From a virus (lineage: Duplodnaviria; Caudoviricetes), in the IMG/VR virus record IMGVR_UViG_3300049988_000286, positions 435,573 through 499,572 of that record: a DNA stretch of 64,000 nt; one strand, 5' to 3'. Each line of letters starts with the position of its first letter. Position 1 is the first letter of the stretch. Position numbers and translations under genes: made by a program. This document shows positions 7,729 through 37,553 of the stretch, in pieces. The notes under the pieces were generated by a model. It was not told the origin of the DNA. It saw nothing but the letters and a program-made list of their open reading frames with translations, and did no database searches.

Positions 7729-7812
7729 GGGTCGGCTGGACACGAGTGAGTCCACCTGACTGTAAATCAGACGCTTTGGCTGTGAGGGTGCAAATTCCTT
7801 CCCGGCCCACCA
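7729..7812 (+). tRNA. tRNA-Tyr(GTA)
   Basis: Acceptor GGGTCGG/CCGGCCC, A73, encoded CCA, anticodon loop CTGTAAA, long variable arm; T-loop reads TGCAAATT rather than TTCRANT. Confidence 0.85.
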
Positions 7813-7837
7813 AGCAACCAAAGAACAGTGATCAGGT

Positions 7838-7911
7838 GCGGCCGAGGCTGACTTGGATGAGGCGCGCGGTTGTGATCCGCGAGATAGTGAGTTCGAACCT
7901 CACCGGTCGCC
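7838..7911 (+). tRNA. tRNA-His(GTG), copy 1
   Basis: Acceptor GCGGCCG/CGGTCGC, anticodon arm CGCGG-TTGTGAT-CCGCG, T arm GTGAG-TTCGAAC-CTCAC; -1 base is T, C73, CCA not encoded. Confidence 0.85.
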
Positions 7912-7930
7912 CCTGAACACTGTTCACCTT

Positions 7931-8024
7931 GGGAGGTGCCCCCGCTCGCCGGTTGTAACCCGGTGGTCTCTAATAAGGGTGGGAAGCATTGAGGCGATGG
8001 GTGCAATTCCTACACCTCCCACCA
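7931..8024 (+). ncRNA. Atypical D-armless tRNA-like RNA with GTA anticodon
   Basis: 8-bp acceptor GGGAGGTG/CACCTCCC plus ACCA, 4-bp T stem, arm GCCGG-TTGTAAC-CCGGT, 9-nt linker instead of a D arm, ~33-nt variable region. Confidence 0.65.
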
Positions 8025-8027
8025 CGT

Positions 8028-8102
8028 GGCGTTGGTAGCTCAATGGTAGAGCGCTCGATTGTGGATCGAGATACGCGGGTTCGATCCCCGTCCTTCGCCC
8101 CA
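8028..8102 (+). tRNA. tRNA-His(GTG), copy 2
   Basis: G-1:C73, D arm TAGCTCAATGGTAGAGC, anticodon arm CTCGA-TTGTGGA-TCGAG, GGTTCGATCC T arm, CCA; two U-U mismatches in the acceptor stem. Confidence 0.88.
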
Positions 8103-9593: not shown

Positions 9594-11770
9594 ATGACCC
9601 GATATCAATTTGAATGCTCGATGCCCGAGTTGGCCGATGGTCGCGAGATCGACATCGAGGACGGCGGTCAGGCCGTGATCTTCCATCCCACGCCGGAATT
9701 CGAACAGGGCGGTGACGGCTTTTTCCACGTCCGGCTACAGAGTTGGGAAGACGGAGCCGCGAAACGCGAGGAATCGTTTGCAAAGGCGCACTCCTTGATG
9801 CGCGAGTTTTCGGGTCGTCGTCTCCGGGTCACTGTTGAAACCATTGACTGATCATCATAAGAAAGAGGCTCGCTTCAACCTCGTCATCATGGTAGCGAGC
9901 TTGATCTTCTCTGCACTGGCGCTTGGAATGTGGTTCTATGATTGATGGCATCGTTATCGCCGACCGAGTTCTAGCCGGGTCGGTGAAGGTCTGGCTCGAC
10001 GAGGAATGCCAGCGCTGCTACGAACACGTAGATTGCGATTACGATGATCTCGACAGGCTCATCTTGCGGCTCACCGATCAGCGGCTGGGTCACAATGTAG
10101 CGGTCGATGTCCTTGATCTCGATAACGACGATCGAGGCGTTTACGGCATCGTTTTGATCGAGGCCGCGCCGATAATCATGAATGAAGTGCTGGGGAAGCT
10201 GAATGCAAACAATGAAGGTTGAGCGCCTCGGCGAGGTGCGAGTCACCGCGCGGAGAGGCGATGGAAGTGAGTTCAGCTTCATGACCGCGACGCCTGATCG
10301 CTACATGGCTCCGGAACCGTTTAATCGTCGAGCGTGGCTACTGGAGCGTGAACAGCGCTACCTTCGCCTCCTAGACAACGATCTTACGAACGGCGCTCGG
10401 GCGCGTCTGGTCGAGGCTCTCGAATGGATCAGGAGTGAACTTGCTTCGCGCCATTGAGGCTATCCGGCTGGTGGGTTTCCGGCTCGGATTGTGGCGTGGT
10501 TTTCACGGACCCACGCTGCCGTGGAACCTACAAGAGCGCGTCTCTACCCTCTTCATCATCTGGCGCGATAGTCGGTTTGAGCGTCCCGTGCCCGCCGCTC
10601 GCGCCTTCTTCCTCCGCCATGGGATCGAGGTTCGTTTCAGTCATAAAGCGAAGGCGCGCCTTGCTCGCAAGCGCGATGTCACGGCCTACCAAGCCTTCGT
10701 CGATGCTGCCAAGAAAACCTTCCAGATCGACGATCATCTCCTCCCGATCTTCATCGATTGGTGCCGTGAGAATGAGTGTGAGATAGCTGTCCAGACGCCG
10801 GACCAGTATCACCCCCAGCATCGACCGTGGTCCAAAGTCACAGCGCTGGGTCAGGATAGTTTCACCCTGATCATGCTCGGTTGTGACATCTCGCCTAACC
10901 GATACACGGATGAAGCAACAATAAGGCGCGTCCACTAAACCCGTGATAGGGTCATGTCTCCTCACTACTAGGAGATTATTATGTCAATCGATCAAGATAC
11001 ACGCTTTTTCGCCGGAGCATCTTCACGCAGCTTTAGCGACGCTTCTGGTCCGAAGGCAAGCCGTGAGGACACCCCCGGCTTCGTCAACGCCTCGGATCAC
11101 CAGTTCACCGACATTTCATCGGAGGCCGAACGTGTCTACAATTTCGGGCAGAAGGGTTTCGTCCGCATCAATCGTCCGCTGCAACTCGCGGTGAGCGACT
11201 CGGGTGGCCACCGTATTTTCTCCGCCGATGGCCGCTCCCACTACATTCCCGCTGGCTGGATCGAGATCACATGGACGACGCGACCGGGTTCTCCGCACTT
11301 CGTTAAGTGACGGGGTATTGACGGGGTGGTGGTGCGCGCCTATCTCGCCGCCTCCACCCTTTAAGGAGATGGCTGCTATGCATCCTGTCGATGCCACAAG
11401 TCCGAAATGGCGGATCGCCAACAATTCGATCCGCATCCTGTACACGCACCCAACGACCCATTGGTCCTTGGCCTCCATGACCTACGACGACATCCCGGAT
11501 CGTATCGGGATACGTTGGAACGGCGATGTTACCGATCGTGGCGATCTCGGTTACCCGAGCGCTCGCGGCAATGGTGCGTGGTTCATCCTTCCCGATCCCC
11601 TTGACGGTCTCGTCCGCGCCATGATCCCGATCTGGAACGGCAACCATGGTGGGGTCGACGTTGCCCCACCCGCGTCGGCATTCGAGAAGATCATGGAAGG
11701 GATGCAGGACGCCATCGCACACGCGGGTGGTGATCACACCCGAGGCCGCATCGCCAATCAGAGCGCGTAA
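9594..11770 (+). other. Run of small hypothetical genes (9594-9851, 9938-10222, 10203-10457, 10435-10938, 10981-11310, 11378-11770)
   Basis: Co-oriented, tightly packed ORFs, several with SD (GAGGAG, AGGAG); no recognisable domains. Confidence 0.55.
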
Positions 11771-17803: not shown

Positions 17804-17888
17804 TGGTCCCCCGGACGAGAATCGAACTCGCTGATGCTTTCGCAAACAGGCGTGAGAAACCTGCGTCCTGCCATTAGACTTCCGGGGG
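17804..17888 (-). tRNA. tRNA-Glu(CTC) with long variable arm
   Basis: Acceptor CCCCCGG/CCGGGGG, A73, CCA; anticodon arm CAGGT-TTCTCAC-GCCTG; variable arm containing TGC-GAAA-GCA; T arm GCGAG-TTCGATT-CTCGT. Confidence 0.85.
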
Positions 17889-17889
17889 A

Positions 17890-17973
17890 TGGCCGCGCTG
17901 ACGGGAATCGAACCCGCTTCTGCTTTCGCAACAGGAGTGAAAGTCCTGCGTCCGCCCATTAGACTTCAGCGCG
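17890..17973 (-). tRNA. tRNA-Glu(TTC) with long variable arm
   Basis: Acceptor CGCGCTG/CAGCGCG, G73, CCA; anticodon arm CAGGA-CTTTCAC-TCCTG; variable arm TGC-GAAA-GCA; T arm GCGGG-TTCGATT-CCCGT. Confidence 0.85.
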
Positions 17974-32256: not shown

Positions 32257-33876
<1,620 letters not shown>

Positions 33877-34909
33877 TCAATCCAGCATCGTCCGAAAACC
33901 AAAGAGCCGGAACAGCACTTCATCATCGGCGCGAATTTTGAAGCGATACCACAACTTCGCCCCACTGACGTATCGCGTCCAGCCGAGTCTGCTGTTTATC
34001 CATGTGCCCTGCACCTGCCAGATGAAGGGGATACCCTGATAGCGACAACCGGCGAATAGTCGGTAAAAGTCAGGATAACCCATCTCGACTACGAGTCGGA
34101 CCGTGCGCATTCGATTTCCTTGATTTGAACTTTGACAAACATCGCATCGAGGTCACGCATGATGAGGCGGCGGCGCGGTCGTTTATTGGGGAACATCCGT
34201 CTTCGCGAGTAGTAGGCGGGACCACGGAACAACGGCTTGGTGATCTTCCCGTAACCGGTCACGTAAGGAAATGTCGAGCACAAGAGCGGGATACCGACTT
34301 GCCTCGCCCATGCCATGAGGGTGCATAACTCCCGCAGGGAGAGCTTACGCTCCAAAGTGCGGTTACGCCCTCGCTGCCATTCTCGCCCTTTACGCGACCC
34401 TGACATACTCATCCCCGAGGAACAACAGGGTAATAGCCATATCGCAAGGCCTCACCATGAAACGTCGATGACGACGGCGCGTCTGATCTGCCATCAATTC
34501 ATACCTCGAACCTCGGTACACTCGTCGATAACCGCGCGCAAAACCCAACCCGGCAATCTGGACACAAGGGACTCCATTGGCTCGACACCAGCGCTTGAAT
34601 TCATTCACGCGTGAGCACGACTGATTGGCGAAGAAGTGCGCGTGAGGCATACCCCGCTATAGTTCACAGCATGAGGCGAAACAAGGCTTCATCTTGGGGC
34701 CGAACGAGGAAGACCATGGGAGTCGTCACGGGACACGGCGGTCCCGAGGCCCGCTCCACCCGTCTAGTCGATACAATGAAGCGCAAAGGCGCTGACATCT
34801 CTGCACCCGCGTAGGCGCGACCGCAGTACACCACGGGGATACCAGATTGGCGAGCCACTGTCATGGCTGCGACTAGGCGGTTGTAGATGGTGTGGACAAC
34901 GATACGCAT
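33877..34909 (-). other. Four tandem small paralogs (33877-34110, 34089-34412, 34390-34650, 34664-34909)
   Basis: Share C-terminal F-x-(V/I)-R-x-x-D-x-x-L/F motif; starts uncertain. Confidence 0.55.
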
Positions 34910-35019
34910 GGCGATCCTTTGAAGTCGAGCGCATAGCGCTCTCCTGATTTGCCTTCAAGCCCTCACTAGCGTTCGGTCTTTCGACAAATCACAAACCTTA
35001 ACTCATATTCCCATAGATA

Positions 35020-35500
35020 GAGACGATACTCTTTATCCCCTCCAAGACCAACTCATCACTGGGATGCGCGCACATGGGCGCGAACGCTGACCTTGGAGGG
35101 GGAAGAAGAATTGAAAACACATTCCCATGAGTATCAACGGATTAGCTCGCGCCCTCGGCGTCTATAGCGTGGCTGGTGGTCACCCGAGACCCAGCACTGG
35201 CGCGCTCTCCCAGACCCTTTCGGGTCTTGACGGTTATCTTGAAAGAAGCTCATCTGGGACGCCGCCTATTACCTTGACGCCCAGACGCGGAGGGGTGTCA
35301 GCAGGACATGGCCCTCCTCTTTTCGGTGTCTCTTGCTACCCGCTGTGCGCGGAACCGGCAACACCTACCCGGTCGGCTATCCTGCCCTACATCTTCCCGG
35401 AACACGGCGACTACGGCCACCTGCAAAGTCCATCGAATGTCTATTCAATCGGGCACACGGCCCTTGGATAAATTTGAGTCCTGTTGTAGAATCCGGCTTC
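35020..35500 (-). ncRNA. Candidate large structured ncRNA
   Basis: No credible ORF; minus-strand TTGACA-18-TACAAC upstream; several helices including AGACCC-GAAA-GGGTCT and long-range GCAGGAT/GTCCTGC. Confidence 0.45.
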
Positions 35501-35508
35501 GAGTCGTG

Positions 35509-37553
35509 TCAATTTCGGAATTCAACTACAGAGTAATTTATCCCAAATAATACCCGATCCTCTTCTGACGTGAAGATAAACCAAATATGGGGAGCGTGAT
35601 CTTCCACCAAGGGAGCGCTGGTAAGGTTAGCCTCGCACCATAGGAGAACTTCATCACGGAGCCACCACCGACTATCGAGCGGTGTAACATTTAGATCGCC
35701 GTCGAACAGATCAGCTTTCAACAGCCTGATGGTGTCCGCGACGCATGGGACGAGAAAGAAATTAGCACTGCATTCCAAGGCTCAACGCTCCGGAGAAACG
35801 CGGCGGAACACCATCGGCGAGATATTGCCGGATACGCGCCGCAGCCTGTGCGGCGGTTGGTTCGATGTTCGCCCAGCCACCATCGAAGAGGTAGGAGAAC
35901 GACACGCCCTCGACTCCGAACACATCGTTGGCGTACTGGTCCCAGCATTCGGTGCCACGCGGCACCGGGACACCGGCAGCGGGTCCATGGCCGAGCGCGC
36001 ACGCTACCGTGCCGCAGCCCATCTCCGCGACCCTATCCGCAACCTTGAGTTCATCCCTCTCCATCAGCGTTTCCTGCGCCGGGCTGTGGAAGTACGTCTC
36101 CATGTCGAAGTGGAGGTAGTTGCTCGGAAGCGCTTCGAGATGGCTCGCCAGCATGGCGAGGTTGTCGGCATGGCGTGGCTCGATCATCATTGCTTCCTGC
36201 TCTGGCCGATCTCTGGGCCAAACGCCGGATTGGTGAACACGCCGGTGCGTGCCCGCGAATCCAGCTTGGTCCGCTTGATCATGTTGTCGGTGAAGATGCG
36301 CTCGAATTCATCGGTGAGGATCACCGCTGCTTCCTTCTCGGTCTTACCCTCGTCGATCAGCGCGCGCAAGCGGCGAACCTCCGGCAACGACCACTTCTCC
36401 TTGTGGCGCTTCGGTGGCGGCGCGGGCTGCAATTCCGCAATGGCGGTGACGTAATCGGCATCAACCCAACCCCGCAATCGGAAGAATTGGATGCGCGACC
36501 GTGGTAGGCCGGTCTGATCTTCGAACACCGCTTGCCAACGGTGATACGCCCCGGTGCGGGTGGAGACAAGCGCCGCCCACTCCGTGTAGGGCATCGATCC
36601 GTCTTCCTGCACCTTGATTTTCTTCGACGACGCCGCTGCCATGTTCTTGTTCTTGGTCAGCAGCGTGGCGATCTCGGCGGTCAATCGAGCAACATCGCGT
36701 TCGAGATCGACGATCTCCTGCTTCTGCTGCTCGACCGTTGCGGTGAGGGTGATGTTCTCCTCGGTGAGACGCATCTTCTCCGCCCGCGCCTCCGAGAAGG
36801 TCTGGAAGGGCTGTGGCGTAGCCGAACGCGCGGGGACGATCGAGCGAATATACTCCGCCATCCCCCCTGCGCTATCGGCGGCACGGCGGATCGCCACAAG
36901 GGCGTTCTCGCGCTCGCCCGGATTGGTGGTTTCCCGCAATGCCATTTCCAGCATTGCCACAGCCCTCGTGTTCATCATTCGGCTGCCGCAGCCTCCGACG
37001 CCGACGCACCGGCATCATTGGCATTCATCGGGAGGCGCAGAAGCGCATCGCTGCTCACGCCGCGCATCTCGCGAATCAGGGCGATCGATTCGCGCATCTC
37101 GGCATTCATGTCGCGGAGGCCGATGAGTTCGGTCAACTGCGCGGTGTGCTCGGTGGCGAGGTGGGCGAACGGCCCCATCAACTCACCCATGCCCTCGTCG
37201 AAGGTGATGTTGCCACTGGTCATGTGGATGAACATCTTGAACATGTGGGTGGCGTCGGCGTGGAACGCGGACGGAATGGTGCCCAGAATGCGCTGAAGAG
37301 CAGCGCCGCCGGTAGGAACGTTGTTCGCGGTCAGGACGCCGCGCTCGGTGCGCTTCGTCGCCCAAGCGGGCATCTTGCCCCGCATTGGACCCTTGATCAG
37401 ACCCTTCCGGACCAGCTTGCGGCCATCGGGATTGTCGAGCAGAAATGCATTGAGCCGAATGGCGCTCGTGTTGAGCAGCTTGGCATACTGGGAGACATTG
37501 CCACCCGGAAGCGCTTCGATGAAGGCTGCGAGATGCTTGTTCGTCAGATTCAT
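35509..37553 (-). other. Hypothetical genes (35509-35778, 35762-36190, 36187-36978, 36975-37553)
   Basis: Co-oriented overlapping ORFs; 36187-36978 has a coiled coil and a possible C-terminal HTH/Myb-like segment. Confidence 0.55.

Follow-up and report, generated by a model that had tools for sequence, protein, structure and literature searches.

A probable new family of large structured noncoding RNAs present in four diverged copies in a half-megabase phage and in alphaproteobacterial islands

A gene-free gap in the genome of a 499,572-bp virus very probably holds a genuine gene for a structured noncoding RNA that belongs to a new family. The DNA analysed here, called the window, is a stretch of 64,000 nucleotides corresponding to bases 435,573-499,572 of that record, and coordinates refer to the window unless another sequence is named. 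Comparisons among four copies in the phage genome and eight homologues from elsewhere, for a family total of 12, show a stand-alone noncoding RNA gene on the minus strand, which extends from position 35513 to approximately 34922 and whose fold is under selection. As with other large, ornate RNAs, its product exceeds 400 nucleotides, has many helices supported by covariation, and is noncoding. The family is absent from Rfam, and no description of it was found in the literature searched. An earlier note on this DNA had proposed a multibranch noncoding RNA on the minus strand of the gap, and this proposal is upheld by covariation across the four paralogues and the eight outside homologues, by the absence of a matching Rfam model, and by the lack of a coding signature.

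The gap is bounded by the stop codon of one minus-strand open reading frame (ORF) at position 35509 and by the ATG of the next minus-strand ORF at position 34909. Within it, the longest minus-strand ORF has at most 64 codons, and the sole long frame is a plus-strand frame of 114 amino acids (35127-35471). Inspection of the ORFs on both strands thus bears out the earlier statement that about 590 nucleotides lack a credible ORF. The RNA gene is surrounded by small minus-strand genes of no known family, and this string of genes converges on the large terminase gene (32278-33876). Upstream of the RNA, a minus-strand ORF of 263 amino acids (36187-36978) resembles a phage scaffolding protein and a coiled-coil domain in Pfam, although these hits are weak and below threshold, and it may be a head-assembly gene given its proximity to the terminase gene.

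Three paralogues of the window copy are located elsewhere in the same record (Table 1) and are 72-75% identical to it over window positions 35120-35513, the promoter block and conserved core. Similarity among the phage copies starts exactly at the −35 element of a promoter-like block and stops at a terminal hairpin, and no flanking protein is common to the four loci. The sister copies resemble the window copy in family, architecture, and promoter block, but differ from it in their flanking genes, in the direct repeats that bracket a C-run/G-run hairpin (AAGGAAAG, AGGAUGAUG, and AUAGGAAUGAU in the other phage copies), and in their hairpin loops. Copy D additionally lacks the P4 hairpin. Miniature inverted-repeat elements and other non-autonomous transposons were considered and rejected, both because the copies are only 72-75% identical and because flank-inclusive alignments revealed neither terminal inverted repeats nor flanking duplications.

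The eight members outside the phage derive from five Sphingomonadales/alphaproteobacterial genomes, two metagenome contigs, and one IMG/VR contig. These homologues have nhmmer E values from 1e-71 to 1e-26 and score 64-131 bits with R1, a covariance model of the 3′ domain, against which the window copy scores 123 bits (E = 4e-27). A two-block sequence pattern identified eight loci in the genome collection, two of which are true homologues that match across the whole RNA (nhmmer E values of 1e-71 and 5e-69) and reside in a Sphingomonadaceae MAG and an alphaproteobacterial MAG; the other six are chance matches. Three further Sphingomonadales genomes were recovered with BLAST and R1, two metagenome contigs carrying the phage-type promoter block were found with a pattern for the most conserved blocks, and a looser pattern added the IMG/VR contig. 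Other pattern searches of the viral collection found nothing, seven pattern loci in that collection were judged to be chance matches, and BLAST against the phage collection gave no match. Terminase relatives in IMG/VR are only 24-37% identical, so that the collection offered no close phage relative for searching. The family is sparse: one bacterial family had it in 3 of 151 genomes, the order yielded 3 true hits from 401 genomes, and R1 had no match in a sample of 150 other Alphaproteobacteria.

Members are recognized by the invariant blocks AUGGACUUUG, GCCGUGUUCCGGG, UAGCCGACCGGG, GAUAACCGU, GGGUCNCGGGNGACCACC, and GCUAUANACGC embedded in a common P1-P9 fold. The window copy carries these blocks within this fold, followed by the C/G hairpin between direct repeats. 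A tree built from the RNA cores places phage copy B as the sister of the IMG/VR member (support 95/92) and groups copies A and B with two non-phage members (84/97); its other branches are weakly supported. This topology suggests that there has been exchange between the phage lineage and island-type elements.

Table 1. Positions of the RNA, its predicted substructures, and associated features. Positions are window coordinates except where another sequence is named.
Feature	Position	Strand	Details
Phage paralogues	C1:103,8xx-104,4xx; C1:256,7xx-257,25x; C1:338,2xx-338,7xx		near 104k, 257k, and 338k
Promoter block (putative)	35477..35513	-	−35 TTGACA 35512-35507, 18-nt spacer, −10 TACAAC 35488-35483
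5′ domain	35320..35476	-	P1, P1a, P2/P2a/P2b, P3, P4, and pseudoknot; covariation, 12 sequences
P1	35471-35466 with 35382-35377	-	closes the 5′ domain; P1a hairpin inside the 5′ domain
P2/P2a/P2b	around invariant AUGGACUUUG and GCCGUGUUCCGGG	-	
P3	35374-35369 with 35358-35353	-	
P4 hairpin	35352-35340	-	
Pseudoknot GGUGU/ACACC	35365-35361 with 35329-35325	-	H-type
P5	35319-35289	-	GAGGAGGG..CCCCUCC, inner UGUC/GACA; middle hairpins region 35254..35319
P6	35284-35254	-	sequence variable, pairing kept
3′ core domain	35130..35253	-	small hairpin P7, invariant GAUAACCGU, P8, P9; model R1
P8 hairpin	35227-35212	-	GAAA loop
P9 three-way domain	35206-35145	-	invariant GGGUCNCGGGNGACCACC and GCUAUANACGC
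Direct repeat DR1 AUGGGAAU	35121..35128	-	just 5′ of the C/G hairpin
C-run/G-run hairpin	35036..35102	-	CCCCCUCCAAGG .. CCUUGGAGGGG, variable 40-nt loop, then conserved AUAAAG
Direct repeat DR2 AUGGGAAU	35007..35014	-	3′ of the C/G hairpin; identical to DR1
3′ tail	34922..35006	-	GAACG..AGUGAG motifs and terminal hairpin; exact 3′ end approximate
Terminal hairpin GAGCGC-UAU-GCGCUC	34941-34927	-	6 nt before the ribosome-binding site of ORF 34909..34664
Antisense ORF, 114 codons	35127..35471	+	not a gene: no Pfam family, no codon-position signal
Resolvases (Resolvase + HTH_7)	L053:8550-9092; L054:11619-12161; L056:464-1006; L057:8277-8834; L062:675-1271		0.8-2 kb from the RNA

The comparisons support ten helices and an H-type pseudoknot. 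When folded as a single sequence, the window copy performs no better than chance relative to shuffled controls (z = −1.6 for the minus strand and −1.4 for the plus strand), and the structural support is therefore comparative rather than thermodynamic. RNAalifold applied to the four phage copies yields 109 base pairs, 30 of which exhibit compensatory changes. Covariation among homologues, a check that the earlier note had proposed, was evaluated on the four paralogues together with the outside homologues, and shuffled controls never attained the observed level (0 of 500). Many of the G-U pairs present on the minus strand would be A-C mismatches on the plus strand; for example, one P9 pair is U-G in 8 of 10 sequences. 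These pairs, together with the fixed distance between the promoter and P1, indicate that the minus strand is the RNA strand.

The conserved core comprises approximately 355 nucleotides. For its 5′ domain, the structure was written by hand and counted on a plain, unfitted MAFFT alignment of the 12 sequences. In this alignment 81% of the cells are paired, compared with 73% in shuffles, and half of the pairs (20 of 40) are changed on both sides, a number not reached in any of 500 shuffles (mean 10.5 ± 2.1). The covariation score of 0.27 likewise exceeds those of all 500 shuffles (0.17) and the values obtained with slid partners (0.07-0.11). The P1 stem, for instance, reads UAUCC/GGAUA, UACUC/GAGUA, UACCC/GGGUA, UGCUC/GAGCA, or UGUUC/GAACA in different members. 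Nine variants of the pseudoknot were observed (GGUGU/ACACC, GCUGU/ACAGC, AGUGU/ACACU, GUUGU/ACAAC, GCAGG/CCUGC, GUUGG/UCAAC, GCAU/AUGC, GCAC/GUGC, and UCGU/ACGA), and cognate pairings keep 4.55 of 5 pairs versus 3.29 for non-cognate pairings, with none of 100,000 permutations as high. The GGTGT/ACACC element had previously been read as a nested helix. Its pairing stands because the two strands covary, but the nesting does not, since the P3 loop pairs beyond P4.

Downstream of the pseudoknot, P5 carries double-sided changes in 6 of its 10 pairs (11 sequences), and compensatory changes are found in 7 of the 8 outer pairs of P6 among the four phage copies. For ten sequences of the 3′ domain aligned on R1, pairing holds in 96.8% of cells, and both partners vary in 15 of the 28 pairs. 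The covariation score of 0.49 is higher than in any of 500 shuffles (0.18) and than the 0.03-0.08 obtained with slid partners; these values are biased towards the model because the alignment was fitted to it. One member (G258, L055:10100-10253) has an insertion of about 150 nucleotides in this domain, between the block equivalent to GAUAACCGU and P9, and the insertion contains its own CCCCC..GGGG hairpin. Most of the helices that had been picked out by eye correspond to elements of the comparative model. The helices AGACCC-GAAA-GGGTCT (35227-35212), CTGGG../..CCCAG (35284-35254), and CCGC/GCGG (35352-35340) all show compensatory changes in relatives, and the pairing of CCCCTCCAAG with CTTGGAGGGG (35102-35036) is preserved there in the same manner. 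Two others, TTGC/GCAA and the long-range GCAGGAT/GTCCTGC, are present in the window copy but unsupported: relatives do not retain them, and they are incompatible with P1, P3, and P5, which covary.

The stem of the C/G hairpin is maintained through sequence change in all 12 members, with variants such as CCCCCCGCUG/CAGCGGGGGG, CCCCCUCUCUC/GGGAGAGGGGG, and CCCCCUGCC/GGCAGGGGG, and the sequence AUAAAG or a close variant is found 3′ of the hairpin across members. In the phage genome, this module occurs only at the four RNA copies, and a dispersed mobile hairpin module was rejected on this basis. A direct repeat of 8-14 nucleotides brackets the hairpin in every one of the 12 members and occupies the same alignment columns. 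The repeat differs between lineages and is identical within each; beyond the phage it reads ACAGGAUGAUG, ACAGGAUGUGA, CAAAGGAUGAUGAU, UGGUGAU, GUUGCAG, or GGGAAUGACC. Cognate DR1 and DR2 sequences have a similarity of 10.4, a score that none of 50,000 permutations reached, compared with 7.0 for non-cognate combinations.

Concerted change of two repeats normally reflects a shared pairing partner or a copying mechanism. Within the linker 3′ of the hairpin, no such partner is evident, as duplex energies are −4.5 kcal/mol for cognate and −4.6 kcal/mol for non-cognate combinations (permutation p = 0.54). A partner in the hairpin loop is also unsupported (p = 0.10 for DR1 and 0.20 for DR2), and a scan of the whole RNA located no site at a consistent column. 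An origin of the repeats by rolling-circle or template-jump copying was rejected because the phage has no reverse transcriptase and because only 5 of 10 members, by our own count, have a DR1-to-DR2 spacing divisible by three. A 31-nucleotide inverted match between DR1 and the start of the resolvase gene in the IMG/VR contig is absent at other loci and was taken as a chance occurrence.

The TTGACA-18-TACAAC element reported earlier is present in the sequence as described, with regard to both its hexamers and its spacer. A simple promoter scanner did not list the site because its second hexamer lacks the final T. The spacer carries the conserved sequences CGACTCG and GATTCTA, with GACTC occurring twice. 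This block is conserved in phage copies C and D and in metagenome members I and J, copy B has the variant TTGACC-N18-TAATCT, and a scan of the 500-kb phage genome found the block only at the four RNA copies. Bacterial members have a TATAAG box located 11-12 nucleotides from P1, which is the same distance as for the phage TACAAC. We infer that the block serves as a sigma-70-type promoter that drives transcription of the RNA. The conserved spacer might serve a dedicated regulator as its operator, or it might belong to the RNA itself.

The 5′ end of the RNA is predicted to lie near position 35476, and the transcript is probably about 555 nucleotides long, ending at the terminal hairpin near position 34922. 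The length of about 450 nucleotides and the 3′ limit at position 35020 given previously are therefore too short by about 100 nucleotides, as a tail of about 115 nucleotides had been missed. This tail recurs in members A, D, E, G, J, and M, as does a terminal hairpin that covaries. The 3′ end of the RNA shows no intrinsic terminator and lacks a U-tract. Because just 6 nucleotides lie between the terminal hairpin and the next ribosome-binding site, co-transcription with downstream genes is possible.

Two 151-nucleotide contigs from a single phyllosphere metatranscriptome are identical to positions 35232-35381 and 35358-35508. They cover only 35232-35508 of the 1.3 kb searched, and give no strand, ends, or expression level. 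The sequence is thus present in an RNA library, which is a weak hint of a transcript that could also reflect DNA carry-over. One of the contigs reaches position 35508, about 30 nucleotides upstream of the predicted start, so that a longer RNA including the putative promoter block, or read-through from the upstream gene, is possible. A public run from 2024, whose library type is unrecorded, includes contigs that are 90-99% identical to window positions 34648-35884, and evidently a close relative of the phage exists in another sample. This run also contains the RNA in a variant form that differs at 12 of 151 nucleotides.

Searches for known RNA classes were negative. At gathering scores, Rfam 15 models identified five tRNAs elsewhere in the window and nothing at the RNA locus. 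With E values up to 10, the region from 34600 to 35900 gave three chance-level hits of 9.6-17 bits, compared with thresholds of 46-110. These searches included the models for ROOL, GOLLD, OLE, RNase P, tmRNA, group I and II introns, 6S, and HEARO, none of which matched, in agreement with the earlier remark that no family could be assigned. ARAGORN reported 0 tRNA or tmRNA genes between 34500 and 35900, and Tandem Repeats Finder returned nothing at the RNA locus. A type III toxin-antitoxin RNA was rejected because tandem repeats are absent and the downstream ORFs are not conserved. The RVT_1 domain has no match in the phage or in genomes G002 and G280, and its matches in genomes G001 and G258 are hundreds of kilobases from the RNA, which led us to reject a retron msr-msd or DRT noncoding RNA.

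In bacteria and in the IMG/VR contig, the RNA is found in islands with integrases, Type I and Type ISP restriction-modification genes, a C5 methylase with a GIY-YIG protein, Fic, and a Schlafen/AlbA_2 protein. A small serine resolvase is encoded within 2 kb of the RNA at five of the six non-phage loci that have enough flanking sequence. The resolvases have 180-198 amino acids; their genes are usually oriented divergently relative to the RNA gene, from which one to three orphan ORFs separate them. These orphan ORFs, which at the bacterial loci belong to no Pfam, PADLOC, or PHROGs family, differ even among closely related loci, and the whole resembles a conserved module containing a variable slot. 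The resolvases are mutually 39-85% identical, which indicates that their linkage to the RNA is old. No resolvase was found in the phage genome, and a search of the literature on resolvase-linked RNAs or RNA-guided serine recombinases returned nothing relevant. The 17.5-kb viral IMG/VR contig 3300026142_000302 holds two identical, inverted copies of the RNA locus (L062:2540-3140 and L064:about 9800-10400) at mirror-image distances from its two ends. Either this contig has terminal inverted repeats exceeding 3 kb, or the arrangement is an artefact of fold-back during assembly.

Taken as a whole, these observations are, in our judgement, somewhat better explained than not by a new noncoding RNA gene with its own promoter, the product of which acts in trans as a scaffold or decoy of mobile DNA. 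The RNA might instead be a long cis-acting leader, such as an attenuator or riboswitch-like 5′ UTR, for the downstream genes (34909..34089, minus strand). The close approach of the terminal hairpin to the ribosome-binding site of ORF 34909..34664, without a terminator in between, would fit such a role, as would the presence of a co-directional ORF about 60 nucleotides or less past the terminal hairpin in G001, G002, and the IMG/VR contig. However, the downstream ORFs are unrelated across the four phage copies and the bacterial loci, except in the closely related G001 and G002, and copy C, G280, and G435 are each followed by a convergent gene. We know of no precedent for a 555-nucleotide leader that retains its own promoter in front of unrelated genes. 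Retention of the promoter before unrelated or convergent genes makes a trans-acting RNA much likelier, and we regard regulation in cis as improbable.

An equally doubtful proposition is that the element functions at the DNA level, as a non-autonomous mobile element or as a site for recombination or replication. The C/G hairpin and its repeats would then be a site that is acted on, for example by a serine resolvase, and the covariation would report a structure in single-stranded DNA. Repeats that are identical within a lineage and different between lineages are expected of recombination core sites or of copy mechanisms, the element is multi-copy in the phage, and most non-phage loci have the nearby resolvase described above. 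On the other hand, the phage has neither a resolvase nor a reverse transcriptase, its copies differ by 25-28% and so have not moved recently, and the ends of the element lack terminal inverted repeats and target duplications. Moreover, the hairpin module is not dispersed in the genome and no member lacks the hairpin segment, while the frequent G-U pairs and the promoter at a fixed distance point to one transcribed strand. The missing enzyme, the age of the copies, and the strand-specific pairing are the reasons for the low standing of this alternative.

Very little probability is given to a CsrB/RsmZ-like sponge, in which the repeats (e.g. ACAGGAUGAUG) would be GGA sites for a CsrA-type dimer. 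GGA occurs in 10 of the 12 repeat pairs, and several of these match CAGGAUG, the repeat of CsrB. However, neither the phage nor any of four host genomes has a CsrA gene that reaches the family threshold, although control genomes were detected, and two members have repeats without GGA (UGGUGAU and GUUGCAG). Two such sites per RNA, on a 555-nucleotide molecule with a conserved core of 355 nucleotides, are also unlike known sponges, and this class was rejected.

Next to no credence can be given to a protein of 114 amino acids encoded by the plus-strand ORF, with the repeated loci as its gene family. In its favour, this ORF is open in copy A, and stop-to-stop frames of 95-118 codons exist on its strand in 6 of 12 homologues. 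Against it, substitutions fall evenly over the three codon positions (0.28/0.25/0.26 for copies A and B; 0.36/0.36/0.39 for copy A and bacterial member E), and the open frames of homologues are in other registers, with products that resemble one another only where the nucleotides themselves are conserved. In addition, the phage copies differ by indels of one and two bases, Pfam gives no match, and no ribosome-binding site precedes the ATG. The codon-position comparison settles the doubt, raised previously, that this ORF might be conserved as a protein. The open antisense frames in the family (window positions 35120-35480 and homologues) are probably a by-product of RNA base composition and represent a trap for gene callers.

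Returning to the trans-acting RNA, analogy and genomic context make a scaffold or decoy of mobile DNA its most likely role. Transcription from the sigma-70-type promoter would begin near position 35476 and yield an RNA of about 555 nucleotides that reaches the terminal hairpin, and this RNA would act in trans rather than on the neighbouring gene. The large, conserved, pseudoknotted core suggests a folded scaffold that would bind a protein partner or self-assemble, as do ROOL and GOLLD RNAs. The hairpin and the two lineage-specific repeats could form a variable recognition module. That the family occurs only in the phage and in islands rich in defence genes suggests that it takes part in conflicts of mobile elements with their hosts, perhaps as a scaffold or decoy for defence or counter-defence.

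A more specific version of this idea, which we consider unlikely, is that the direct repeats are programmable recognition segments, so that each lineage or paralogue would address a different nucleic-acid target by means of a common scaffold. If true, the family would represent a new class of guide-like RNAs carried by mobile elements, possibly serving as the RNA partner of the island serine resolvases, with a decoy or retargeting version in the phage. An RNA that works with the linked resolvase, or repeats that act as specificity elements, would open a new chapter in RNA-directed processes. To our knowledge, bacterial and phage RNAs of more than 500 nucleotides with conserved complex folds are rare, and nearly all have yielded new biochemistry, including ribozymes, RNA-protein machines, and RNA-only cages. 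The family is also experimentally tractable, given its small membership, its tight association with mobile DNA, its four diverged versions in a half-megabase phage, and its concerted repeats.

Two groups of known RNAs offer the closest comparisons. The bridge RNA of IS110 is a scaffold RNA of a mobile element that carries guides (PMC11208158). Similar to bridge RNAs and to the omega RNAs of TnpB and IscB, the RNA described here combines a conserved scaffold with short, lineage-specific segments, is located in mobile DNA, and, in its bacterial members, is adjacent to a recombinase gene. It differs in being two to three times longer, in that the neighbouring gene encodes a small serine resolvase, and in that the phage copies have no recombinase. 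No gene for an IS110 recombinase, TnpB, or IscB, the companions of the bridge and omega RNAs of IS110, IS200-605, and IS607 elements, is present among the flanking ORFs scanned with Pfam at the window copy and six outside loci.

ROOL and GOLLD are large ornate RNAs of phages, prophages, and bacteria (Weinberg et al. 2017, PMC5737381), and cryo-EM has revealed them to be homo-oligomers (PMC12286853). The new family resembles them in its length of more than 500 nucleotides, its many covarying helices, its pseudoknot, its own promoter, its lack of coding capacity, and its carriage by phages or mobile DNA. ROOL and GOLLD are often located next to tRNA genes, whereas the nearest tRNAs within the window are about 17 kb from the RNA (17807-17973, with others at 7729-8099). 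Other features that set the new family apart are the presence of four diverged paralogues in one genome, the hairpin bracketed by co-evolving direct repeats, and the resolvase linkage of bacterial members. Should the RNA form assemblies like those of ROOL and GOLLD, this class of RNAs would be broadened to the phages of Alphaproteobacteria.
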